Virus record (IMG/VR): IMGVR_UViG_3300027210_000001
Location: 17,322 to 81,321 of that record
DNA length: 64,000 bases
Direction: 5' to 3' (one strand)
From: a virus
Lineage: Duplodnaviria > Caudoviricetes
The notes below the pieces were generated by a model. It did not search any database. It was given only the letters and a program-made list of their open reading frames with translations, and was not told the origin of the DNA. A program made the translations under genes and the position numbers. Position 1 is the first letter of the stretch. Every line of letters begins with the position of its first letter. Below are positions 1 through 31,088 of the stretch, in pieces.

Positions 1-75
1 TCCTTCACAGAAACAGACATCACCTTCATCCATGATGCTCTCTGCTCACTAGCAGAAGTACTCACTGCAGATGAT

Positions 76-435
76 GTGGTACACCAGCATAAAGACTTGG
101 TTATTGCCAGGCTTGCTGAGGTAACTGACATCATTGATTCTCAGATCAATGCTCCGTCTAAACCTACATCATTCCTCAATGAATACCATAAGCTTGCTGA
201 TGTTCTCGAAGAACTGAAAGCTATCTCTCAACGTGAGAGCAAGCGTCACGAAGTGGATCAACATCTCACTCCCTCCATGCTTGCCATGGTGGATGATGAG
301 ATTATCCCCATGCTTGAGAACGAAATGGACTATGACCCATCAGATGAAGACCTTGGCTATGGCGGTGAGCCGCCTATGACAGCAGACGAAATGCACACAG
401 CTGCATGGCGTCAGCACCAGGAGCTTCATCGCTAA
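76..435 (+). CDS. hypothetical protein
   Basis: 119-aa ORF in a co-oriented run of early genes; acidic C-terminus. Confidence 0.7.
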   Translation: MVHQHKDLVIARLAEVTDIIDSQINAPSKPTSFLNEYHKLADVLEELKAISQRESKRHEVDQHLTPSMLAMVDDEIIPMLENEMDYDPSDEDLGYGGEPPMTADEMHTAAWRQHQELHR

Positions 436-540
436 CAACCCTACCGCAAGGTTAAGGAAACATTAAGACCATTGGTCATGGCTTGACTGCTCTGGTAGAC
501 TTGCCATGACCACACTCAACTCACACTACGCACCAATCAA

Positions 541-1040: not shown

Positions 1041-1407
1041 ATATCCAATCACCCCACCGCCTGAACTAGTGGAGCAGTGGGCTGATGAAGCAGGGAAGGG
1101 ATGGAGAGGAAACGGTACCTACGAGCAAGACATCGCTACCCAAGCCGCCCGCTGGGGCAGTGACCAGGAGCTGGAGGCGTGTTGTGAGTGGCTTGGTGAT
1201 GCTCCTGTTGTGTATAACGACAATGGTGATCTTCATCCAGGTGCATATCTAAGAGATGCCCGCCGTTCCAAATTGCTGAGCTTGAAAGAGCAAGCGCTAA
1301 AAGTGCTGAAGAACGCACGAGGGCAAGACCACCCAAGCCCAGTGTCAGTACTTACTGCTGATGAACACGCACTAATCCGTCGTGCATTAGAACAACTTAA
1401 TGACTGA
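1033..1407 (+). CDS. hypothetical protein, PITPPPELVEQW family (paralog of 6517-6876)
   Basis: Shares N-terminal PITPPPELVEQW and internal SLKEQAL with 6517-6876. Confidence 0.8.
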   Translation: MTEYPITPPPELVEQWADEAGKGWRGNGTYEQDIATQAARWGSDQELEACCEWLGDAPVVYNDNGDLHPGAYLRDARRSKLLSLKEQALKVLKNARGQDHPSPVSVLTADEHALIRRALEQLND

Positions 1408-1597
1408 CAAATCACCTATCAACTTTGATAAGACCATTGCTGGGTTTAACATAACCGAGCATGGTATTAAATCATTCACCAAATCAATTCAACTTGGTCC
1501 GTTCCAAGTAACACTTAACGCCAGAGAATCTGGTGTACGTGGATCTATCTCATTGCCTGGCACAGGCTTGAGTAAACGTAACATCAAGTTGTTTTGA
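1400..1597 (+). CDS. DUF4236-like small protein
   Basis: GPFQVTLN...GVRGSISLPGTGLS resembles the DUF4236 S.G.PGTGLSY signature. Confidence 0.6.
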   Translation: MTDKSPINFDKTIAGFNITEHGIKSFTKSIQLGPFQVTLNARESGVRGSISLPGTGLSKRNIKLF

Positions 1598-1602
1598 TAC
1601 AT

Positions 1603-1629
1603 GGACCTGGGATGTCCTTAAACTCATCC
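1603..1629 (+). promoter_or_regulatory. leader H-type pseudoknot motif, copy 1 (GGAC variant)
   Basis: Stem1 GGAC 1603-1606/GTCC 1614-1617, TTAAAC linker, weaker stem2; 21 nt before ATG 1651. Confidence 0.55.
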
Positions 1630-1650
1630 AGTCCAACTCAACCTAAACTC

Positions 1651-1848
1651 ATGAACTCAACTGAACTTCACGCCATGATTGCCCGCATGGACGGCTATGG
1701 CGGATCATTCGTATCCTCAATTGCACAAGCATTGCGCTTTGCTGATCCAAAGAATCGGCAGCGTTTGCTTGATGTATTCCCTGATCTTGTCCAGAAGTAT
1801 GGACCTGAAGGTCAGTTTGCTAAAGCCAAACAACTCACACAGGTGTAA
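1651..1848 (+). CDS. hypothetical protein
   Basis: Likely start MNSTELH at 1651; motif GGSFVSSIAQALRFADPKNRQRL. Confidence 0.8.
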   Translation: MNSTELHAMIARMDGYGGSFVSSIAQALRFADPKNRQRLLDVFPDLVQKYGPEGQFAKAKQLTQV

Positions 1849-1851
1849 CTC

Positions 1852-2100
1852 ATGAACGTGTTAGCAATTGAACACACAGTCATTGATGGTAACGATGTCA
1901 CAGTTACAGCAGTGGTTGATGACATGCGTCTCATCCATCGGTCAACTTACCTTGACCCTGAAGAATATGCTCCTGCATTGTGCAGAGCTAGCTTCGAACT
2001 GGATGAGGGAGAACAAATCCCTCTTGACGAAGATGGCTTCTGCAGCTATCTTACTGACCTCAACCCTAACTGGGAACTCCTCCCAGTAGATAACGACTGA
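1852..2100 (+). CDS. hypothetical protein
   Basis: 82-aa acidic ORF, 3 nt after previous stop. Confidence 0.8.
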   Translation: MNVLAIEHTVIDGNDVTVTAVVDDMRLIHRSTYLDPEEYAPALCRASFELDEGEQIPLDEDGFCSYLTDLNPNWELLPVDND

Positions 2101-2106
2101 CACTAT

Positions 2107-2135
2107 ACGTCCTGGACATGACGTTAAACTGTCCA
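2107..2135 (+). promoter_or_regulatory. leader H-type pseudoknot motif, copy 2
   Basis: ACGTC/GACGT (5 bp) and TGGACA/TGTCCA (6 bp), TAAAC linker; 28 nt before ATG 2164. Confidence 0.75.
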
Positions 2136-2163
2136 TCAACTCCGAACTTACTCCGAACTCACC

Positions 2164-3903
2164 ATGGAATTCCGTCTTCCCGCTAATCTTCAAACAGAAC
2201 TTCTTGCTTACGATCCCAAGCTTAAGCAACTGCAGCGTGAACAGAATCCTACTGCTAACAAAGCTAAGCCCAAGTTTCCACTTGGCGCAGTCTTTGATCT
2301 TATACCTGCTGATGTTGTTACACCAACAAAGCTTGAAGAAGTAGTAACTGATCTCAACGCCAGAAGTGTGGAACATCGTCACACTCGATTTACCAAGGTG
2401 GTAGATGTTGCTACTGCAACAGCACGCACCATTACTTATGCCATCATCTATTACTATGAGAAGGTATGGCATGCAGCATGGCTGCCGCCCAAAGGACAAG
2501 AAGATGACTACGTATATGGCTATGCTTATGCCTACAAGAATCTTGATTCAGTACGTAAGACAGTTCCGCATACTTTAATTGATAACAACAGTAGAGTAAC
2601 CGTTGACTATGTTAAGTACGGACGCAGTGAGTTCTGCGTTGTACGCCACAAGGTAACCAAGCAAGACATTGCTAATGGTAGAACAAACCGTTGGTGGAAT
2701 CCTACCTACATTTCATACGGCAAGGGTGGACAAATCAAGACAACCATATCAGCATTTGAATCCACACTCAGTGAAACCATACCCAAGTGGATTGATTCAC
2801 GTGGATTCTTTGACCGCATTGTAACTAATAACTGGGCTGCAATCCTGGGCATCAAAGATCGTTCACTTTATTGGAATACATTTGAGGATCCAGAACAAGC
2901 CAAGCGTGATGTAGTTCCATCTGCAGATTTGTTCTATGCATTTGCTGATGTGTACAAAAGCAATAATGATTATCACGCTCAGACTTATTGCATTGCTGAT
3001 CGCATCATGCATGTCATTGGCAAACCATTCTTCCGCAAGTGGATTCAATCCCAGTGTGATGAAGCCATTGCAATGTTTGAGAACGAAGACAACAATCTGT
3101 TTCGCAAGGTAACTCAACCTTGGAATCGTATTGAAAAGCTGGTGCAATCTATTGATTACATTAATAAGATTTGGCAGGATTGCCCTGTTGATTTTTATCA
3201 GACACATATTGAATATCTAATTGGCATCCGTCTTGATCGTCACGTAGCTGATAGTGTACAGCTATGGTTGCGCAATCACATGCAACCAGCTACATTCTTT
3301 CATATACTCAAGAAGCATTACGAAGATCAGGTCAACACTGATTCCAGTAGTTTGTCTTATTACACAAACAGTGAAACTGGCAAGCTGTCATTTTATTTCA
3401 CAGAATGGAATGACACATTGTCAATGGTTAGCGATGTCTTAACAAATCACGGTTCTCTAGAAGCGCCAAGGCGTTGGCGTCTTACTGAATTCCATGATCA
3501 TGTACAAGCAGAAGCATGGAAGATCAAACATCCAAACGCTAGCCTGCCTCAAGATCTATTCCCATCACCTGTCAAGGTTGAGGTGGGTGATGAACGCTGG
3601 TCATTCTTCCAGCCTCATGACACACATCAACTGTCAGCATGGGGCCAGGCCGTACGTAATTGCGTCGGCAATGCTAAGGACTATGCAGATGGTGTACGCA
3701 AGAAGAAGCATTTCATTGTGCTTTGCATGGTTGACAACAAGCCTCAGTTCACTGTTCAACTTAGAGTTGACATGGGTATGATGAGCGTCAGCCAGATCGT
3801 TGGCATGTCCAACCAACGGTTGACGGATGAGCAGAAGGATGCTTACACACAAGCCTTTAGCAAGGCATTGCATTCCCGCAATGATGAGCTAGAGTCTGCG
3901 TAG
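2164..3903 (+). CDS. PcfJ-like domain protein
   Basis: C-terminal QPHDTHQLSAWGQAVRNCVG...FTVQL matches the PcfJ-type L..EG..M.NCV motif. Confidence 0.7.
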   Translation: MEFRLPANLQTELLAYDPKLKQLQREQNPTANKAKPKFPLGAVFDLIPADVVTPTKLEEVVTDLNARSVEHRHTRFTKVVDVATATARTITYAIIYYYEKVWHAAWLPPKGQEDDYVYGYAYAYKNLDSVRKTVPHTLIDNNSRVTVDYVKYGRSEFCVVRHKVTKQDIANGRTNRWWNPTYISYGKGGQIKTTISAFESTLSETIPKWIDSRGFFDRIVTNNWAAILGIKDRSLYWNTFEDPEQAKRDVVPSADLFYAFADVYKSNNDYHAQTYCIADRIMHVIGKPFFRKWIQSQCDEAIAMFENEDNNLFRKVTQPWNRIEKLVQSIDYINKIWQDCPVDFYQTHIEYLIGIRLDRHVADSVQLWLRNHMQPATFFHILKKHYEDQVNTDSSSLSYYTNSETGKLSFYFTEWNDTLSMVSDVLTNHGSLEAPRRWRLTEFHDHVQAEAWKIKHPNASLPQDLFPSPVKVEVGDERWSFFQPHDTHQLSAWGQAVRNCVGNAKDYADGVRKKKHFIVLCMVDNKPQFTVQLRVDMGMMSVSQIVGMSNQRLTDEQKDAYTQAFSKALHSRNDELESA

Positions 3904-7572: not shown

Positions 7573-8200
7573 TGCCAAGTTAGTCTGGGTAACTCCCAAT
7601 GCAGAAGAAATGATTGTGAAGATGGCACGCGTAAGTGCGCCATCAAACCAAGGCAACATGGATACAGCGCCACGCCTGTTGAAGTACTTGATTAATCACA
7701 AGCATCATTCACCATTTGAGATGGCCAATCTTTGTGTTGAAATCGAAACAACTCGTGGTATTTCAGCACAGATACTTCGACATAGGTCCTTCAGCTTCCA
7801 GGAATTTAGCCAGCGGTATGCAGACGTAAGTGCATTGGGATCCTCAGTGATTCCACATCTACGTAGGCAAGACATCAAGAATCGTCAGAATAGTATTGAC
7901 GACCTGTCTCCTGATGTAATTGCTGGGTACTACCGACGCATTGGCCATCTGTTTGAAGATGCAGAACATCTGTATCGCGAGATGGTTAGCAGTGGTGTTG
8001 CCAAGGAATGCGCACGTGCTGTACTTCCTATTGCAACCAAGACAAAGATGTATATGAATGGAACACTCCGTTCATGGATCCACTACTTGCAACTGCGTTG
8101 TGATGTAAGCACTCAGCTTGAGCACAGGCAAATTGCAGAAGAAATCAAAGAGATTTTCTGCGAACAATTCCCCATCATTGGTGAGGCTGTATTCGAATGA
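7565..8200 (+). CDS. thyX: FAD-dependent thymidylate synthase ThyX
   Basis: HHSPFE and RHRSFSFQEFSQRY ThyX motif, AKECARAVLP, TQLEHR. Confidence 0.96.
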   Translation: MSSAKLVWVTPNAEEMIVKMARVSAPSNQGNMDTAPRLLKYLINHKHHSPFEMANLCVEIETTRGISAQILRHRSFSFQEFSQRYADVSALGSSVIPHLRRQDIKNRQNSIDDLSPDVIAGYYRRIGHLFEDAEHLYREMVSSGVAKECARAVLPIATKTKMYMNGTLRSWIHYLQLRCDVSTQLEHRQIAEEIKEIFCEQFPIIGEAVFE

Positions 8201-8526
8201 CTGACAAACCTTCTAAGAAATGGATTCGTGATTACGATTATGTCCTGTTTGAAGTGGAGTACGATCAAACATTAGATGAGTACATGGATTATATAAAAGA
8301 ATTAATCAATGAAGGATGGGAGGGTATTGAGTTAGTACCTTATAAATATGGTGAAGGGTATTTCCCATACCTTTATAAAACACGCATGGAAACCGATGTT
8401 GAGTTCCAGGCTCGTTTAGAGCTTGAAGAAAAAAAACAGAAGAAAAAAATTAAAGCTGCAGAAAGGAAACGTAGACAGTACGAAAAACTTAAAAAGGAAT
8501 TTGAACCCAATGGAATACCCAATTAA
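8197..8526 (+). CDS. hypothetical protein
   Basis: 109-aa ORF, AT-rich, charged C-terminus. Confidence 0.7.
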   Translation: MTDKPSKKWIRDYDYVLFEVEYDQTLDEYMDYIKELINEGWEGIELVPYKYGEGYFPYLYKTRMETDVEFQARLELEEKKQKKKIKAAERKRRQYEKLKKEFEPNGIPN

Positions 8527-8656
8527 AGAACTTGCCATTCAGCACTGGGAAGCTCTTGTGCTAGGTGGATTGGATGGACGTGAGTACACAGACTCAATGC
8601 TCTACATCCGCAATGCCTTGAACTTTGTCAAATATATTTTTTTATGGTTACAATGA
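8510..8656 (+). CDS. hypothetical small protein
   Basis: Likely start MEYPIK at 8510. Confidence 0.55.
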   Translation: MEYPIKELAIQHWEALVLGGLDGREYTDSMLYIRNALNFVKYIFLWLQ

Positions 8657-8678
8657 CAATGAATTAACTTTCACGTAA

Positions 8679-9809
8679 ATGCATCCCGAAGAAGCCAGGA
8701 AACTTTTCTTTAAAGAAGTTGACAATTGCTATTGGAATCCAAAGCTAAGTATTAAAGTTGCTCCCAATGGGGATCGTACGGTTGTTACATCAGCTGCATT
8801 GCAGAAAAACGAACCACTTGTTGTTTTAAATAAGAACGCATTTTTTAATGCAGAAAAATGTATTGAACATTCTAAAGAAGATATTTCAAGTATTCGTAAA
8901 ACACTTATTATTCCTGCATATCTTTATCAGTTCTACACAAATCATGGGGCCACAGCACTTGATGGTTACGCTTATTACTTCAATGCATTGCCGACGTATG
9001 AATGGTACGAACAAAACCATGAGGTATTTAAAATTTATTTAAAGCTGACTGGAAAACAAAGAAAAGAACTGCATGATAATTTTTACGTGTTTGAGCAAAT
9101 TGATTCTTTCATTGAATGGGCAAGTCAAATCCCTGGGCATACAGTAGATAAAGAACAAGCTATTCGTAGTGTTCTTGCATCTTTAACCAGGACTTGGTCT
9201 TCTGTTGGTTTAGTGCCATGGATTGATTTTTGTAACCATTCATATGAAGGAAGCTTTCTACAGAGTGAGGGAACTACGATTGTAGCTTCTCATGCTTACA
9301 GCAAAGACGAAGAAGTTAACGTAACCTATGGCGTAAAGGATAGCTTGCAGTTATTGAGTGTGTATGGTTATGCAGCAAAAGATAAAACTGTTGGAATTAA
9401 ATTTCCTCCAATCTCTTCTTTTGCTTTGGCCGTTGATTCAGGTCTTCAAAAGTACGCTGACTCTTCTGTGTCTGCCCCATGCTTACTTGGTAAACAGCTA
9501 AGGAATTTTGATTTTCTTCTTTCGCATATGCGTCTTTGTGTATTCGATAAAGTAGATGCTCTTACTTGTTCTGACCCAGAGGAAGCCTGCCAAACTTTTT
9601 TGAATGCTCAGAATGAATTAAAAGCTTTAAAACTTTTTCTACACATGGTCCAAGTAACACAAAAGAATCTTGAAGAGTTAAAAAACAAAACAGAAAAAGC
9701 GCTAGGGAAAATCCCTGAAGTCCTTGAAGAAGATTTTAAAGGTAAAGATGAAGTGTTTAACAATATAACCAAAAGGATTTACAAACACTGGCTTGACTTA
9801 TTGTCTTAG
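8679..9809 (+). CDS. SET-domain methyltransferase, Rubisco-LSMT/SETD3-like architecture
   Basis: LVPWIDFCNHS (SET motif III), EEVNVTYG...LLSVYGY (post-SET YG..YG), helical C-terminal region with NELKAL. Confidence 0.8.
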   Translation: MHPEEARKLFFKEVDNCYWNPKLSIKVAPNGDRTVVTSAALQKNEPLVVLNKNAFFNAEKCIEHSKEDISSIRKTLIIPAYLYQFYTNHGATALDGYAYYFNALPTYEWYEQNHEVFKIYLKLTGKQRKELHDNFYVFEQIDSFIEWASQIPGHTVDKEQAIRSVLASLTRTWSSVGLVPWIDFCNHSYEGSFLQSEGTTIVASHAYSKDEEVNVTYGVKDSLQLLSVYGYAAKDKTVGIKFPPISSFALAVDSGLQKYADSSVSAPCLLGKQLRNFDFLLSHMRLCVFDKVDALTCSDPEEACQTFLNAQNELKALKLFLHMVQVTQKNLEELKNKTEKALGKIPEVLEEDFKGKDEVFNNITKRIYKHWLDLLS

Positions 9810-9815
9810 CCTATC

Positions 9816-9842
9816 CGTCCTAAGCAAGACGTTAAACTGCTT
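9816..9842 (+). promoter_or_regulatory. leader H-type pseudoknot motif, copy 3
   Basis: CGTC/GACG and AAGCA/TGCTT, TTAAAC linker; followed by GCAA and GCAC hairpins. Confidence 0.7.
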
Positions 9843-9882
9843 GCCCCGCAAGGGGTCTGGTAAAGTTCCCGCACGGGAATAT

Positions 9883-9909
9883 GGACCCGAGATGTCCCTA
9901 AACTCATTC
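9883..9909 (+). promoter_or_regulatory. leader H-type pseudoknot motif, copy 4 (GGAC variant)
   Basis: GGAC/GTCC, GAG/CTC, CTAAAC linker; close in sequence to copy 1. Confidence 0.55.
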
Positions 9910-9942: not shown

Positions 9943-10704
9943 ATGCAACTCCTCAAATTTTCCAACGGCAACGGCAAACTCAAGAATCGTCTGATCTTCT
10001 CGCTGCCTGCTGGCCACTCATGCCCACACGCTGGTGTCTGTAAGACATTTGCTGACCGTGTCACAGGACTCATCACTGACCTGCCCCAGTACACGGGCAC
10101 AGAAGCAGATGAGTTCCGTTGCTTTGCTGCCATGGCAGAGGTGCGGCCCAACGTTCGTGCGGCACGCTGGCACAACTGGGATCTTATCCGTGAGGTCATC
10201 CATTCCAATGGCAACCAAGCCGTGCTGCTTCGTGACTTGATCGACTTGTCACTCACCATGCAAGCACCTAAGGATCTGGTGCGTGTCCATGAGTCTGGTG
10301 ACTTTTGGACTGAGAACTACATGCGGGCTTGGCTAATGGTTGCTGCCCAGCGACCCAAGCAAAAGTTCTATGCCTACACCAAGTCTCTTGGCATGTGGTA
10401 CAACCTGCGTAACCAGATTCCATCCAACTTCTATCTCACCGCATCTTGCGGTGGGACACTCGACTACTTGATCCCCAAGTACAGCGCTGTGTTCCAGCGA
10501 GTTGCTTACGTTGTGTACACAGAAGAACAGGCAGCAGAGCTGGGTCTTGAGATTGATCATTCTGATGAGTTATGCTTGGGTTCTAAGCCATTTGCTCTTT
10601 TGGTTCATGGATCTCAACGAGCAGGATCAGAAGCAAGCCAAGCAATTTCTACACGGAAAAAAGAAGGAGGATTTATTGGGTATGGACGAACCCACAAAAA
10701 ATAA
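9943..10704 (+). CDS. Gp88-family protein
   Basis: FSLPAGHSCPHAGVC...CFA, VRVHESGDF, FYAYTK; likely start MQLLKFS. Confidence 0.8.
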   Translation: MQLLKFSNGNGKLKNRLIFSLPAGHSCPHAGVCKTFADRVTGLITDLPQYTGTEADEFRCFAAMAEVRPNVRAARWHNWDLIREVIHSNGNQAVLLRDLIDLSLTMQAPKDLVRVHESGDFWTENYMRAWLMVAAQRPKQKFYAYTKSLGMWYNLRNQIPSNFYLTASCGGTLDYLIPKYSAVFQRVAYVVYTEEQAAELGLEIDHSDELCLGSKPFALLVHGSQRAGSEASQAISTRKKEGGFIGYGRTHKK

Positions 10705-11143
10705 ACCCTGCATTAAATGCGGAAGTCTTAGGAGGTATCCTCCTCGCCCCGGTACAAAAACCGGGGCCTGTATTGATTGTTGTAATGCTAGAAATAAAAA
10801 ATGGGAACACAAAAATAAAGAACGCATAAAAGAAATTCAAACTTCTTATAAAACAAAGAACATTGAAACATGGAAAAAAAGTAAACAAAAATCAGCCGAA
10901 AAAGAACGCAGGTTAAATCCTGTTAAAACACAAGCTCGCATGGCCGTTAAGTCGGCAATTGAAAAAGGAATTCTTCCTAAGCTTTCGACTTGTGTCTGTC
11001 TTGATTGCAAAAAACCTGCTAGCGATTATCACCATGAAAACTATGATGAACCTTTAACTGTTATTCCTCTATGTCGTTACTGTCATATAAAAAGACACAG
11101 GCAAATCAAAAAAGAATCTGTAGGATCTTGCGTGCCTAGATAA
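10682..11143 (+). CDS. HNH endonuclease
   Basis: N-terminal CxxC...CxxC; C-terminal CLDC...YHHENYDEPLTVIPLCRYCH; AT-rich. Confidence 0.8.
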   Translation: MDEPTKNKPCIKCGSLRRYPPRPGTKTGACIDCCNARNKKWEHKNKERIKEIQTSYKTKNIETWKKSKQKSAEKERRLNPVKTQARMAVKSAIEKGILPKLSTCVCLDCKKPASDYHHENYDEPLTVIPLCRYCHIKRHRQIKKESVGSCVPR

Positions 11144-23705: not shown

Positions 23706-23735
23706 TTTAAAATATTAAAGAGTAAGCCAGGTGAA

Positions 23736-23806
23736 TCAACCGTGCTGGAATCGAACCAGCTATCTAACTCCCTTGTCGGGGTGTCCTGCCACTGGACTAC
23801 CGGTTG
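23736..23806 (-). tRNA. tRNA-like element A (non-canonical anticodon arm)
   Basis: Acceptor CAACCG/CGGTTG, T8-A9, D arm GTCC-AGTGGCA-GGAC, T arm GCTGG-TTCGATT-CCAGC; anticodon arm only CCC-CGACAA-GGG. Confidence 0.7.
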
Positions 23807-23811
23807 AGTGA

Positions 23812-25657: not shown

Positions 25658-26254
25658 TTACTGCAGTTCTTCCCAGACCCAACCCACTTGATACGCATCA
25701 ATGAAGCAAGGGATACCAAGGGATTCCATTAGTTCATGGATCAAGCGCCCTTTGCCTAAACGCTGACCTTGTGGAGATGTGATGTTGTCATCAACAATGA
25801 TTAAGGTGCCAGGGTTGATGATGTTCTTGGCGGCAAACAATTCCTTGAGGTGATGAGCAGCCGGTGCCCAATCATTGTTCCAATCAGAGATGTTGTACGA
25901 GTCCAGGTACAACAGATCACAGCGTCCCTCTAGGGTGCCAAGGAATTCGACCGAGTCTGACTCGATAACTTCAGTGTTATTGCCGGTGCTTGCAGCGGCT
26001 AACTCACAAGCTTCTGGGTCAATGTCAATGGAGATCAGTTGGCCGCCATGGCAGCTGACGTACGTATCAAAGAGAAGAGTCGAGCAACCGTCGCCCGTGT
26101 AATTATTCTCTTCTCGGTAGGTACCCGTCTCAATAATGATGGGGTTTTGGACCCCATTTAGGTGGTCGAAAATTTTTTGGAACCCGTTGGCACGCGCACC
26201 GAGCTTAAGTTTGATCTCGGAAAAATACGTGGTCCAGTCAGTTGCTTGGGTCAC
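25658..26254 (-). CDS. class I SAM-dependent methyltransferase (Methyltransf_24-like)
   Basis: IIETGT, LISIDID, DSVEFL, DLLYLDS, IIVDDN. Confidence 0.85.
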   Translation of the reverse strand: MTQATDWTTYFSEIKLKLGARANGFQKIFDHLNGVQNPIIIETGTYREENNYTGDGCSTLLFDTYVSCHGGQLISIDIDPEACELAAASTGNNTEVIESDSVEFLGTLEGRCDLLYLDSYNISDWNNDWAPAAHHLKELFAAKNIINPGTLIIVDDNITSPQGQRLGKGRLIHELMESLGIPCFIDAYQVGWVWEELQ

Positions 26255-28096: not shown

Positions 28097-30732
28097 ACGC
28101 AAACCAACAACTCCTGAAACCCGGCGAAATTCGTCTCGACTACATCCCCATCGATTGGCCGTTAACGCCATTAGGCGGTAACAAGGATCCGTATGTCGCA
28201 GGCTGGCAAAACAAACCTTTTAGCGTACGAGAAATTGAAGAAGAACTTACCACGGGAGACTGCAAAGCCATCGGGCTACTGGGCGGGCCTGTCTACAACC
28301 ATCCTTATGGTTTGGTGTGGGTGGATGTTGATGGCCCGAGTGTCTACAAGTTACTCGAAGACATCTCCGGATTACCCCTACAAGACGCACTGCCGCCAAC
28401 ACTGACGATTTTCAGTGGCAAAATCGGACGTGAACGGAAACTGTACCGTTTAGACCGAGAAAAACATAAGCATTTTGCGCGTAACAAATATACGTGGCAC
28501 GCAGAAGGAGACAAAGAAAAGCTTGAGATCTTGTGGAAGAAGCACCAAGGCGTGTTAATGGGTCTGCACCCTGAGACCGATGGTTACTTTACGGGAGAAG
28601 GCTGTGGTTTTGAGTGGTCCCAGGAACTGCCTGAATTCCCGGAATGGTTGCTGGCTGCCATCATTAACAAGAATGTAAAGCATGGTATTCCGTCGACTGA
28701 GATCAGTCGGGTCGTCATGCCAAGCAGCGTTGTTCACAGTGTGATCAGCGTTGACCGTGACATGAAGCTGGCCGTCAAGGCAATGTGGGCTTTACCGCCG
28801 GAAGCTGCGGATGATTATGACATCTGGATCATGATCGGTCAGTCGCTCCACAGCCTGGACGAATCTCTGTTAGATGACTGGGATAACTGGTCGCAACAGT
28901 CGGACAAGTATCGGGAAGGTGAGTGTCACAAGCGTTGGCTGTCCTTTAGTAAAGGCGGTGGTCGTGGCATTGGCACCCTCATCCAGACTGCCCAGGAGCA
29001 TGGCTTTGTCGTGCCCCAGGACTATCGGGCAGAAAGCGTAGATGACGAGACGCTTGAGGCTGCAGCAGCAAAGCTGAAGGCCATTGAAGAAGGCGAAGGT
29101 ATGGTCGTAACAATTCCTAAAGAAAAAGAGGAGCGCTTGATGTCTAGCGTTGGGCATATCGCTAACTCACTTGAGGAAGCCATGAGGATGGGCGAAGATG
29201 TCAGGACGGTAGAAGAAAGCAAACGCAATCCATCTACATCTGAAATTGCTGATGTACTCCTAGGTAAGTACAAAGGCGATGTGCTGTACAGCCTGCCACA
29301 TAACCAGTTCTTTGTTTATGACACTCGTCAACATGTCTGGTTGCCGCTGACAAAAATTGAGGCGATGGGCAAGATTCGCCATGATCTTTCGATGCTTGGC
29401 AAGTTTCTTCCCAAGGGCTTCACGTCGAACATGATGAATGATGTCTTCATTCAGCTCCAGGCGTCCTTGGCATTCAGTGAGTGGTATGACGGCACTGACT
29501 ACCTGCTGTTCACGAACGGCATCTTGAATGTGGCAACGCGTGAACTGCTTCCGTTTAATCGGAACATGTACATGACGCAACAAATGCCCTATGAGTATGA
29601 CCCGTCTGCTACATGCGAAGCCATTGTCCAATGGCTGAAGCACACCCAACACGACAGTTGGAAGCGCACTCAAGTGCTGCGTGCATGGCTGAGGGCAACC
29701 CTTCTGGGTCGCTACGAAACTCAGAAGTTCCTTGAGATTGTTGGACCTGGTAAGTCGGGTAAATCTACCTACGCAAACCTGGCAGTTGCACTGGTTGGTA
29801 AAGCTAACTGCTACTCCACGGACATGGAGAACCTGGAGAAGAACCGATTTGAAGCTGCATATTGCTTCAATAAAAAGTTGCTGCTGTTCCAGGATGCCGA
29901 CCGTTGGGGTGGCTCCGTATCAAAACTTAAGGCCATCACAGGTTGTGACTGGATTCGTGCTGAGCGTAAATATCAGGGCGATGCGATGGATCCCTTCCAG
30001 TACCACGGTGTTGTTATTATTACCGCCAACGAAGCTATTCAGTCAACTGACTACACGTCTGGTCTTGCTCGTCGCCGCCTCACCATTCCGTTCGATCGTC
30101 CATTTGAAGGTGGACAGTCCGAGCAAAAGGAGCTGATTAAGTTTGATACCAAGGGGAATCCGCAGGGTGTGTTTGCGCCACTGCTTCCTGGCCTCGTTAA
30201 CTGGGTCTTGGACATGACTGAGGATGACATGCGGGAACTCCTGATGGAGACCAGTCAACATGTACCGTTCTTCAAAAAGTATGAGAAGGCGCAATCCCTG
30301 CGTTCTAACCCCATGCTTGATTGGTTGGATAGCAAGGTGGTGTTTGAGCCAAATGAATCGACTCCTGTTGGTTACTGCAAAGTAGCTGCAAGCGGTGGGT
30401 CTGGTGTCTACATGAATTGGGGCACCTGGCTGTACCCAAGCTATGCAGAGTTCTGCCGTAGCTGTAACGTCGGCATTATTTCACGTGCTCGTTTTGAAGT
30501 GCTGCTGATGGACATTATCCAACATCAGTTGAAGCTGAATGCCTATAGCATGAAAAACACGCAGGGTCTTCGCATCAACAACGTGGCAATCAGGGACAGT
30601 AACAACAAATACACTGACTACCCTTCGATTGTTGAGCTGGCTGCCAACCCGGAAGAGTACATTCCTTTCTACGGTTCCGTCAAAATTAAGGCTGGTGATG
30701 CGAAGATAGATGATATGCCTGCCGAAATGTGA
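28093..30732 (+). CDS. primase-helicase: Prim-Pol (AEP) + PriCT-2 + D5/P4-like SF3 helicase
   Basis: VWVDVDG, YDIWIMIGQSLH...WDNWS (PriCT-2), LLFTNG, Walker A GPGKSGKST, RLKAITGCD-like SKLKAITGCD, LARRRL. Confidence 0.92.
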   Translation: MNANQQLLKPGEIRLDYIPIDWPLTPLGGNKDPYVAGWQNKPFSVREIEEELTTGDCKAIGLLGGPVYNHPYGLVWVDVDGPSVYKLLEDISGLPLQDALPPTLTIFSGKIGRERKLYRLDREKHKHFARNKYTWHAEGDKEKLEILWKKHQGVLMGLHPETDGYFTGEGCGFEWSQELPEFPEWLLAAIINKNVKHGIPSTEISRVVMPSSVVHSVISVDRDMKLAVKAMWALPPEAADDYDIWIMIGQSLHSLDESLLDDWDNWSQQSDKYREGECHKRWLSFSKGGGRGIGTLIQTAQEHGFVVPQDYRAESVDDETLEAAAAKLKAIEEGEGMVVTIPKEKEERLMSSVGHIANSLEEAMRMGEDVRTVEESKRNPSTSEIADVLLGKYKGDVLYSLPHNQFFVYDTRQHVWLPLTKIEAMGKIRHDLSMLGKFLPKGFTSNMMNDVFIQLQASLAFSEWYDGTDYLLFTNGILNVATRELLPFNRNMYMTQQMPYEYDPSATCEAIVQWLKHTQHDSWKRTQVLRAWLRATLLGRYETQKFLEIVGPGKSGKSTYANLAVALVGKANCYSTDMENLEKNRFEAAYCFNKKLLLFQDADRWGGSVSKLKAITGCDWIRAERKYQGDAMDPFQYHGVVIITANEAIQSTDYTSGLARRRLTIPFDRPFEGGQSEQKELIKFDTKGNPQGVFAPLLPGLVNWVLDMTEDDMRELLMETSQHVPFFKKYEKAQSLRSNPMLDWLDSKVVFEPNESTPVGYCKVAASGGSGVYMNWGTWLYPSYAEFCRSCNVGIISRARFEVLLMDIIQHQLKLNAYSMKNTQGLRINNVAIRDSNNKYTDYPSIVELAANPEEYIPFYGSVKIKAGDAKIDDMPAEM

Positions 30733-31088
30733 GTAACGGACGCCATCTGATTCTGGACCTGTATGACTGTGATCCAGAAGTGTTGAATGACTATGAGGAG
30801 CTTCAGCGATTGCTTGAGGCTTCTCTTGTCATGGCAAAGGCAAATATCTTACGCATCATTGGTGAGAAATTTGAACCGCAAGGAGTGACACTACTGGCAC
30901 TGCTGGCGGAATCACATGCATCTGTTCATACGTGGCCAGAAATTGGGTATGCCGCAATCGATCTCTACACGTGTGGTGACACAACGGAAACGCACCGTGC
31001 AGCTGAGTTCCTAAAAACAAAACTCAAAGCCAAAACATCAGAAGAAAAAGAACTTGTACGGTCGATTACGCCGTCCGTTTCGGTATAG
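30729..31088 (+). CDS. speD: S-adenosylmethionine decarboxylase proenzyme
   Basis: GRHLILDLY, LLAESHASVHTWPE (E-S self-cleavage site), IDLYTCG. Confidence 0.96.
   Translation: MSNGRHLILDLYDCDPEVLNDYEELQRLLEASLVMAKANILRIIGEKFEPQGVTLLALLAESHASVHTWPEIGYAAIDLYTCGDTTETHRAAEFLKTKLKAKTSEEKELVRSITPSVSV

Follow-up and report, generated by a model that had tools for sequence, protein, structure and literature searches.

Two-lobed SET-domain proteins of the LSMT/SETD3/SETD6 class are best known from eukaryotes and plastids, and members of this class modify Rubisco, aldolases, actin, ribosomal proteins and transcription factors. Canonical SET domains typically carry the SAM motif I, GxG, in their N-SET part. 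The described members closest to the locus studied here are the pea Rubisco large-subunit N-methyltransferase (LSMT; PDB 1MLV, 1OZV, 1P0Y, 2H2J), human SETD3, an actin His73 N-methyltransferase (PDB 3SMT, 6MBJ, 6ICT, 6V62), and human SETD6, a RelA Lys310 methyltransferase (PDB 3QXY). The target pocket of SETD3 is lined by Asn255, Trp273, Ile310 and Tyr312; Asn255 corresponds to Phe and Trp273 to Ala in the lysine methyltransferases SETD6 and LSMT, and Tyr312 is the sole pocket residue conserved across the three enzymes (Dai et al., PMC6684798). Bacterial proteins with about 30% identity to SETD3 have been described (PMC6289574), and therefore the class is not strictly eukaryotic. A full-text literature search returned nothing relevant on SET domains in cyanophages or other phages, and we found no account of phages that use lysine methylation of proteins as a strategy.

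The gene analyzed here is encoded in a 64,000-nucleotide stretch (hereafter, the window) of an 81-kb IMG/VR virus record. A preliminary interpretation made from the letters and open reading frames (the sequence-only reading) had described it as a Rubisco-LSMT/SETD3-type SET methyltransferase of 376 amino acids. The open reading frame was confirmed exactly as claimed, including its ATG start, and all the motifs quoted in support were found: GDRT (residues 31-34), PWIDFCNHS (180-188), EEVNVTYG (211-218), LLSVYGY (225-231) and NELKAL (312-317). Two architectural claims also held in the predicted structure, namely a long insert between the SET halves, seen as model helices across residues 58-169, and a helical C-terminal region, seen as a mainly helical lobe at residues 236-376. 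The features of the locus are listed in Table 1.

Table 1. Features of the SET gene locus (positions are those of the window).
Feature	Position	Strand	Basis or remark
Complete CDS, 376 aa plus stop, LSMT/SETD3/SETD6-class SET-domain protein	8679..9809	+	ATG start
N-SET lobe, residues 1-57, with atypical SAM motif I G31-D32-R33-T34 (nt 8769-8780)	8679..8849	+	Model strands 23-27, 33-37, 46-50
Helical iSET insert, residues 58-169, with class motif Y100...L104-P105	8850..9185	+	Eight model helices; SETD3 alignment
C-SET catalytic core, residues 170-235: T-R171-x-W173, L-V-P-W-I182-D-F-x-N186-H187, Y217-G, Y229-G	9186..9383	+	30/66 columns invariant; alignment to SETD3 and SETD6
Mainly helical lobe at the C-terminus, residues 236-376; corresponds in structure to the substrate-binding lobe of LSMT	9384..9806	+	Full-length structural alignment; 14/141 columns invariant
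Putative promoter-like site, TTGTCA-18 nt-TACAAT, ending 25 nt upstream of the ATG, within the 152-nt spacer	8625..8654	+	Consensus scan, 10/12 matches
AT-rich 109-aa ORF immediately upstream of the SET gene	8197..8526	+	GC 34.5%

The SET gene is AT-richer than its neighbors, as had been noticed from the sequence: its GC content is 36.2% (GC3 27.6%), compared to 45.1% for thyX, 50.1% for gp88, 45.2% for polA and 46.5% for the whole window. The 109-aa ORF that precedes it is just as rich in AT, so the low-GC stretch comprises positions 8197-9809. This ORF has only weak PHROG matches, to families of unknown function. The spacers are 152 nt ahead of the SET gene and about 115 nt from the SET gene to the probable start of gp88. 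The promoter-like site in the upstream spacer is a weak lead, since the count of such sites in the region near the gene was not above the shuffle expectation. Rfam and tRNA scans gave no match within 8679-9809.

A search of 5.8 billion proteins identified 23 clusters of full-length homologs (375-395 aa, 44-63% identity), all of them unnamed or annotated as 'hypothetical protein' and none with a precomputed Pfam domain. The conservation of the gene is far above chance, since the alignment of these clusters contains 80 invariant columns and dN/dS is 0.15 for the sole pair unsaturated at synonymous sites (the other estimable pairs fall in the range 0.15-0.26). Thus, the SET gene is a real gene under purifying selection. 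Among the regions of the protein, invariance is highest in the C-SET core and lowest in the C-lobe (Table 1), which is the most variable part of the protein. An exhaustive phmmer search of 1.84 billion representatives yielded 14 proteins at E <= 0.001. Besides two divergent phage members (P0028 with 32% and P0029 with 29% identity), these included proteins of about 380 aa aligned nearly over their full length (E 3e-6 to 6e-4), such as the 380-aa SET protein P0030, which matches residues 18-375 with an E-value of 3e-6. A further member, 31% identical to the phage SET protein, is encoded on a phage-like contig with 65% GC. At least 94% of the sampled words of the SET gene are present in 20 metagenome runs labeled as lake, freshwater or 'marine', which come from 19 coded studies of 2016-2025; nine of these runs are a possible source of this DNA, and no RNA run was among those listed.

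The fold of the protein was predicted by AlphaFold2 using the 23-sequence alignment (pLDDT 86.8, pTM 0.81); the sole region of the model with pLDDT below 50 is the loop 190-196 that adjoins the NH motif. In a Foldseek search against PDB, the model matched SETD3 (E 2.7e-12, about 440 alignment columns), Rubisco LSMT (6e-10) and SETD6 (2.8e-7), as well as the plastid RNA-polymerase subunit PAP7/pTAC14, followed by SMYD proteins at about 1e-4. Structure comparison recognized the SET beta-fold with its split N-SET and C-SET halves and gave values of 21.0 for LSMT (342 of 376 residues aligned, model 1..376 on chain 51..460), 19.8 for SETD3 (model 1..376 on chain 74..490), 19.1 for SETD6 (model 1..368 on chain 19..473) and 13.5-16.1 for PAP7. 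The best value for any other class was 8.7 (SMYD2); thus, the LSMT/SETD3/SETD6 class is clearly set apart from other SET classes in structure space. The model aligns to LSMT and SETD3 over its full length and to SETD6 over nearly all of it, and therefore both lobes match, beyond the SET core.

Profile searches led to the same class once distant relatives had been added to the family profile, an addition that was needed for the PDB matches to become significant. The extended profile matched SETD3 with an E-value of 5e-21 over positions 32-301, reaching into the C-lobe, and also LSMT (1.3e-15), PAP7 (3.5e-12) and SETD6 (4.2e-12). The close-family profile on its own hit only SETD6 (E 0.11), and a PDB search with the single phage sequence produced noise (best E 0.28). 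L104 and P105, which are aligned with the Y..LP motif of SETD3, are invariant even in the distant relatives. The match to the Pfam SET family (PF00856) spans profile positions 2-105 of 105 and protein residues 33-218, and its score of 17.5 bits falls below the gathering threshold of 22.4. Pfam SET matches at E <= 0.1 were observed in 17 of the 23 family members (best 1.4e-4), and the distant relatives P0030, P0032, P0034 and P0035 exceed the threshold. The gathering threshold is a detection threshold and does not represent a biological feature. As regards the C-lobe, the Pfam family Rubis-subs-bind (PF09273), with which the sequence-only reading had proposed to compare the protein, had no match in it at E <= 1. 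One distant relative (P0036) shows a faint Rubis-subs-bind match (E 0.045), and the language-model look-alikes of residues 236-376 taken separately are Rubis-subs-bind clusters (score 0.91), which we regard only as a lead. Class membership is supported independently, since fold and profile both point to LSMT/SETD3/SETD6. The assignment of the phage SET protein to this class as a two-lobed member is therefore fully supported by the predicted model and the profile searches, in agreement with the class and long architecture suggested from the sequence.

To describe the active site, we used the residue mapping from the profile alignment to SETD3. Residues R171, W173, P180, I182, D183, N186-H187, V215, Y217 and Y229 of the phage protein correspond to R253, N255, P271, W273, D274, N277-H278, I310, Y312 and S324 of SETD3, respectively. 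These pocket and catalytic positions are invariant in all 23 members except for position 215, which is Thr in the other 22. The 'NH' motif of the C-SET core (N186-H187), located on the cofactor side in the pseudoknot region, is aligned with N277-H278 of SETD3 and with the NH of SETD6. The active-site tyrosine is Y217 within the motif E-V-N-x-x-Y-G; it is invariant and aligned with Y312 of SETD3, the counterpart of Y285 of SETD6. Thus, the C-SET catalytic residues are retained in the phage family.

The SAM motif I is non-canonical. Its description as GDRT in place of GxG was accurate, as in the profile alignment the G-F-G of SETD3 pairs with D32-R33-T34, preceded by G31; both glycines of the motif are therefore replaced (D32 and T34). 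All 23 members have D32 and R33, and T34 is also among the invariant columns, while the distant relatives from the wider viral clade keep only the central Arg of D-R-T. The D-R-T form of motif I lowers the confidence in catalysis, not in homology.

The pocket of the phage protein retains the tyrosine and has an aromatic residue (W173) and a small aliphatic residue (I182) at the positions where LSMT and SETD6 carry Phe and Ala. Y229 occupies the position of Ser324 in SETD3 and lies in a Y-G-(F/Y) motif, as does the equivalent residue of SETD6 (YGF). The histidine pocket of the Asn255/Trp273/Ser324 type is absent. When PDB sequences are ranked by the profile, the lysine-converted SETD3 N255F/W273A mutant (6v62) comes first with 78.3 bits, compared to about 73 bits for the wild type. 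Because the W173/I182/Y229 pattern resembles LSMT and SETD6 and not SETD3, we predict that the phage enzyme is lysine-directed rather than histidine-directed, a call based on three positions aligned at 12-15% identity and on the predicted model.

The family does not belong to the widespread, annotated part of the cyanophage gene repertoire: tblastn against 50,697 GenBank phages gave no match to the SET protein, no matching PHROGs family was found, and its 23 clusters bear no functional name. The two-lobed fold was not seen in any viral protein of BFVD, where the SET proteins were short or of giant-virus origin. A pattern scan of GTDB genome contigs with the family had no match, and a word-indexed search with the wider alignment did not add cellular relatives. 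Among the 1.84 billion representatives, no protein outside the phage family is closer than about 24-29% identity. The contig with the nearest non-phage relatives is eukaryote-like and encodes a glycogen-debranching enzyme that is split; others are located on low-GC contigs of 250-631 kb, adjoining sulfotransferase genes. A copy of a host gene was also considered as the origin and rejected as far as tested: the picocyanobacterial family gave weak matches in 2 of 301 genomes (E 5e-6 and 3e-4), both confined to the C-SET motif, and in one of these (L096) the protein has 481 aa, no Pfam match and 36% identity over 58 residues. Thus, no donor of the phage SET gene was identifiable in the searches run.

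A cyanobacterial host is well supported for this phage, because its polA product is 68.5% identical to the DNA polymerase of Synechococcus phage S-EIV1 and the window encodes a CP12 domain (E 1e-8) and an NblA-like protein (E 8.5e-5, just under the threshold). The presence of CP12- and NblA-type genes in the same genome, pointed out by the sequence-only reading, was thereby borne out; ferritin and SAM decarboxylase are encoded in the window as well. S-EIV1 (KJ410740), isolated from a high-arctic lake, is the closest cultured genome. It shares the thyX, gp88, polA, SSB and DUF5895 backbone, arranged in the same order, and its core proteins are 58-82% identical to those of the window, but tblastn found no SET gene anywhere in its genome. 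Its thyX-gp88 interval contains only an unrelated 112-aa ORF, which shows no homology to the 109-aa ORF at the same position in the window (BLASTP E 45).

In the window, the gene order is thyX, SET, gp88, polA, SSB. A SET homolog occupies the same site between thyX and gp88 in three metagenomic contigs from JGI samples (66.9-79 kb) and in one IMG/VR contig, the only further one that a pattern scan of IMG/VR for the family found. Two other contigs with the same backbone carry the SET gene elsewhere, downstream of the ferritin gene and an ORF of 290 aa, with a hypervariable block on the minus strand coming after it. Thus, the gene lies outside the core genome of S-EIV1-like freshwater cyanophages and forms an accessory cassette with two alternative positions. 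The SET proteins are 44-50% identical between phages whose ThyX, Gp88, PolA, SSB and DUF5895 proteins are 75-86% identical, and in every locus the GC content of the SET gene is 5-13 points under that of the rest of the locus. The shift of site, the lower identity and the low GC content are the signature of a mobile, fast-diverging gene long resident in the phage gene pool. No conserved neighboring partner gene was found across the SET loci, and the search for flanking repeats that could mark a mobile cassette returned only low-complexity chance matches. The proposal that the gene had been recently acquired holds in part: the cassette is accessory, deviates in composition and is lacking in S-EIV1, but there is no identifiable donor and the family is already diverged to 44% identity within phages.

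Taken as a whole, we consider it reasonably probable that the SET protein is an active lysine-directed methyltransferase that acts during infection on a specific folded protein, more probably one of the host. SAM would most likely be bound in the cleft between the two lobes, and the methyl group would be transferred to the epsilon-amine of a lysine, with the C-terminal helical lobe helping to hold the protein substrate, as in the LSMT/SETD3/SETD6 class. The target would more probably be a protein of a host of the freshwater Synechococcus/Cyanobium type, because same-backbone phages do without the SET gene. The charge of the protein (mildly acidic SET lobe, mean net -7; near-neutral C-lobe) is too weak to indicate a substrate. 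The targets named by the sequence-only reading, i.e., Rubisco, aldolase, ribosomal proteins and phycobiliproteins, obtained no support, as LSMT, SETD3 and SETD6 are all equally distant from the protein and the substrate surfaces of this class are not conserved (PMC6684798).

An active methyltransferase could instead modify a phage protein, such as a virion, replication or other phage-encoded factor. That the gene lies in the module for replication and nucleotide metabolism, both in the window and in three relatives, is consistent with this, as is the recognition of specific folded substrates via variable surfaces in the class (PMC6684798), and a variable C-lobe would fit co-evolution with a phage partner. 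We nevertheless consider a phage substrate unlikely: no core phage protein depends on the SET gene, since S-EIV1 and other same-backbone phages do not have it, in further relatives the gene resides in a different, hypervariable region, and no co-conserved phage partner gene was seen. The substitution in motif I would also fit a SET-fold protein with little or no catalytic activity, which would clamp a host protein as a scaffold or inhibitor and would resemble PAP7/pTAC14. Yet all 23 members share R171, N186, H187, Y217 and Y229 without exception, as one would expect for an enzyme but not for a protein that only binds, and the residues substituted in motif I show no drift but are likewise invariant. 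PAP7, moreover, is a weaker match than LSMT, SETD3 and SETD6, and is regarded by its authors as a possibly active enzyme. A scaffold role thus seems about as improbable as a phage substrate.

Two narrower alternatives concern the target and the modified residue. As a counterpart of the plant Rubisco LSMT, which acts on Lys14 of RbcL or on aldolases, the protein might methylate the host RbcL or fructose-bisphosphate aldolase and adjust the Calvin cycle together with the phage CP12. Its sequence shows no greater affinity to LSMT than to SETD3 or SETD6; a Rubisco or aldolase target is speculation, and we rate it as quite improbable. By analogy with PAP7, an RNA-polymerase target might be imagined, likewise as speculation. 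Methylation of histidine, as in SETD3, or of another non-lysine residue appears the least plausible, and we give it very little weight. SETD3 is indeed the top match in both the Foldseek and profile searches, but its Asn255, Trp273 and Ser324 positions are taken by an aromatic residue, a small aliphatic residue and Tyr, as in the lysine enzymes LSMT and SETD6. Lysine methylation of a host protein remains the reading that we prefer.

A more far-reaching version of the preferred reading, which we put forward only tentatively and hold to be rather doubtful, is that this is the first phage auxiliary gene working by protein lysine methylation, directed at a specific protein of host core physiology and acting beside CP12, NblA and SAM decarboxylase; its rapid divergence would then reflect adaptation to host alleles or evasion of counter-measures. 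Candidate targets within core physiology would be an enzyme of the Calvin cycle, a component of translation (a factor or a ribosomal protein), or RNA polymerase, where the plastid homolog PAP7 sits. The SET gene of cyanophages carrying CP12 and NblA-like genes is a concrete, expressible candidate for post-translational host reprogramming. In addition, the prokaryotic and viral branches of the LSMT/SETD3/SETD6 class, which are poorly charted, gain a defined phage clade, and this clade bears on the origin of the eukaryotic and plastid enzymes of the class. The practical value of the SET gene is limited until the substrate is found; the interest would be high if that substrate is a host protein.

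Comparison of the phage protein with the known systems reveals several differences: (i) the pea Rubisco LSMT is 12-16% identical to the phage protein, its crystallized chain has about 440 aa compared to 376 aa, and it has GxG as motif I and Ala at the position of I182, whereas the phage protein has D-R-T and Ile and its C-lobe is not matched by Rubis-subs-bind; (ii) human SETD3 has Asn255, Trp273 and Ser324 in place of W173, I182 and Y229, and its N- and C-terminal extensions are missing in the phage protein; (iii) human SETD6 is 15% identical, its match to the close-family profile is not significant, and its substrate, a eukaryotic transcription factor, has no counterpart in the host of the phage; and (iv) PAP7/pTAC14 is a SET-fold subunit on the cyanobacterial-type plastid RNA polymerase, where its contacts involve plastid-specific features and other PAPs. 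The short viral and bacterial SET proteins of 120-250 aa (the 'SET domain-containing protein' entries of BFVD, from uncultured Caudovirales phages and giant viruses) have the SET core fold and, in the viral cases, the virus-encoded status in common with the phage protein, but they lack the iSET/C-lobe architecture and match it weakly (best E 3.9e-5, TMq 0.31; phage entries E >= 0.1). We therefore rate the product of the phage SET gene as a new and divergent addition to an already known class of enzymes, in a biological setting that is new as well.

Leucine codon usage was compared between the AT-rich accessory genes and the core genes of the phage. TTA accounts for 10 of the 40 leucine codons in the SET gene and for 4 of 8 in ORF109, the 109-aa ORF directly upstream of it, these two genes spanning 8197-9809; the core genes (thyX, gp88, polA, SSB, DUF5895, and prim-pol) use TTA for 0-11% of their leucine codons. 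The AT-rich accessory genes may be served by the phage-encoded tRNA-Leu(UAA). The tRNA-like gene at 23735-23807 has an abnormal anticodon loop and received no Rfam call at the gathering threshold; it lies within an RNA locus that had been singled out in the sequence-only reading.

Features of the window and SET-like proteins from other loci
Feature	Location	Strand	Evidence and remarks
tRNA-Leu, anticodon UAA	4777-4852	+	Rfam, 56.5 bits; ARAGORN
Two TAAAC-containing elements (9816, 9883)	9816-9905		Spacer between SET stop codon and gp88; sequence reading
HNH endonuclease ORF	10502-11143	+	phrog_2340, E 5e-14; between gp88 and polA
tRNA-like gene, "tRNA-???", anticodon "ca"	23735-23807	-	ARAGORN
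Methyltransf_24 protein	25658-26254	-	
S-adenosylmethionine decarboxylase	30729-31088	+	Pfam AdoMet_dc, E 8e-36; after Prim-Pol gene
CP12-type ORF, 44 aa	34740-34874	+	Pfam CP12, E 1e-8, above threshold
Glucosaminidase and C39/C70-like papain-fold peptidase domains, 376 aa	35228-36361	-	E 2e-17; E 2e-8
NblA-like protein, 99 aa	46437-46739	-	Pfam NblA, E 8.5e-5, 23.4 bits
481-aa protein, 3.1-Mb picocyanobacterial genome	L096 (G301:C159:5094-7683), ORF 1093-2538	-	
P0030, ~380 aa	L011, 6001-7143		Among nearest relatives outside phage SET family
P0044, ~380 aa	L015, 987-2135		Among nearest relatives outside phage SET family

Since the phage encodes an S-adenosylmethionine decarboxylase, a SAM-consuming enzyme coexists in one genome with SAM-dependent methyltransferases, namely the SET and Methyltransf_24 proteins. 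The decarboxylase gene likewise follows the Prim-Pol gene in another locus, L006. The minimal CP12 that had been proposed from sequence was borne out by the Pfam search, in which the ORF aligns solely with the C-terminal region of the CP12 domain, at profile positions 40-70 of 70. The NblA-like protein scores slightly below the Pfam cut-off of 25 bits; its match spans residues 14-60 and is followed by an extra C-terminal tail. The protein combining glucosaminidase and peptidase domains is probably a two-domain cell-wall lysin.

Outside the phage SET family, the picocyanobacterial 481-aa protein has no Pfam match, carries the LSMT-type C-SET motif (L-P-L-I-D-L-L-N-H ... S-Y-G ... H-Y-G-F), and aligns with the phage family across 58 residues (hhalign E 1.7e-5); it may be a hidden host SET protein. 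P0030 and P0044 are encoded on low-GC contigs (about 30%) of up to 631 kb, where they adjoin sulfotransferase genes, accompanied on L011 by an APS-kinase gene, and lie near a row of 600-1100-aa proteins without known family. A large virus or an atypical bacterium may be the source of these contigs.

The TAAAC-containing elements downstream of the SET gene, listed in the earlier reading as leader pseudoknots, are candidates for such structures; no TAAAC occurs in the 152-nt spacer that precedes the gene. Because the gp88-polA interval lacks an HNH endonuclease gene both in S-EIV1, the closest cultured genome, and in the L003 phage, the HNH ORF found there represents a second insertion beside the SET cassette.
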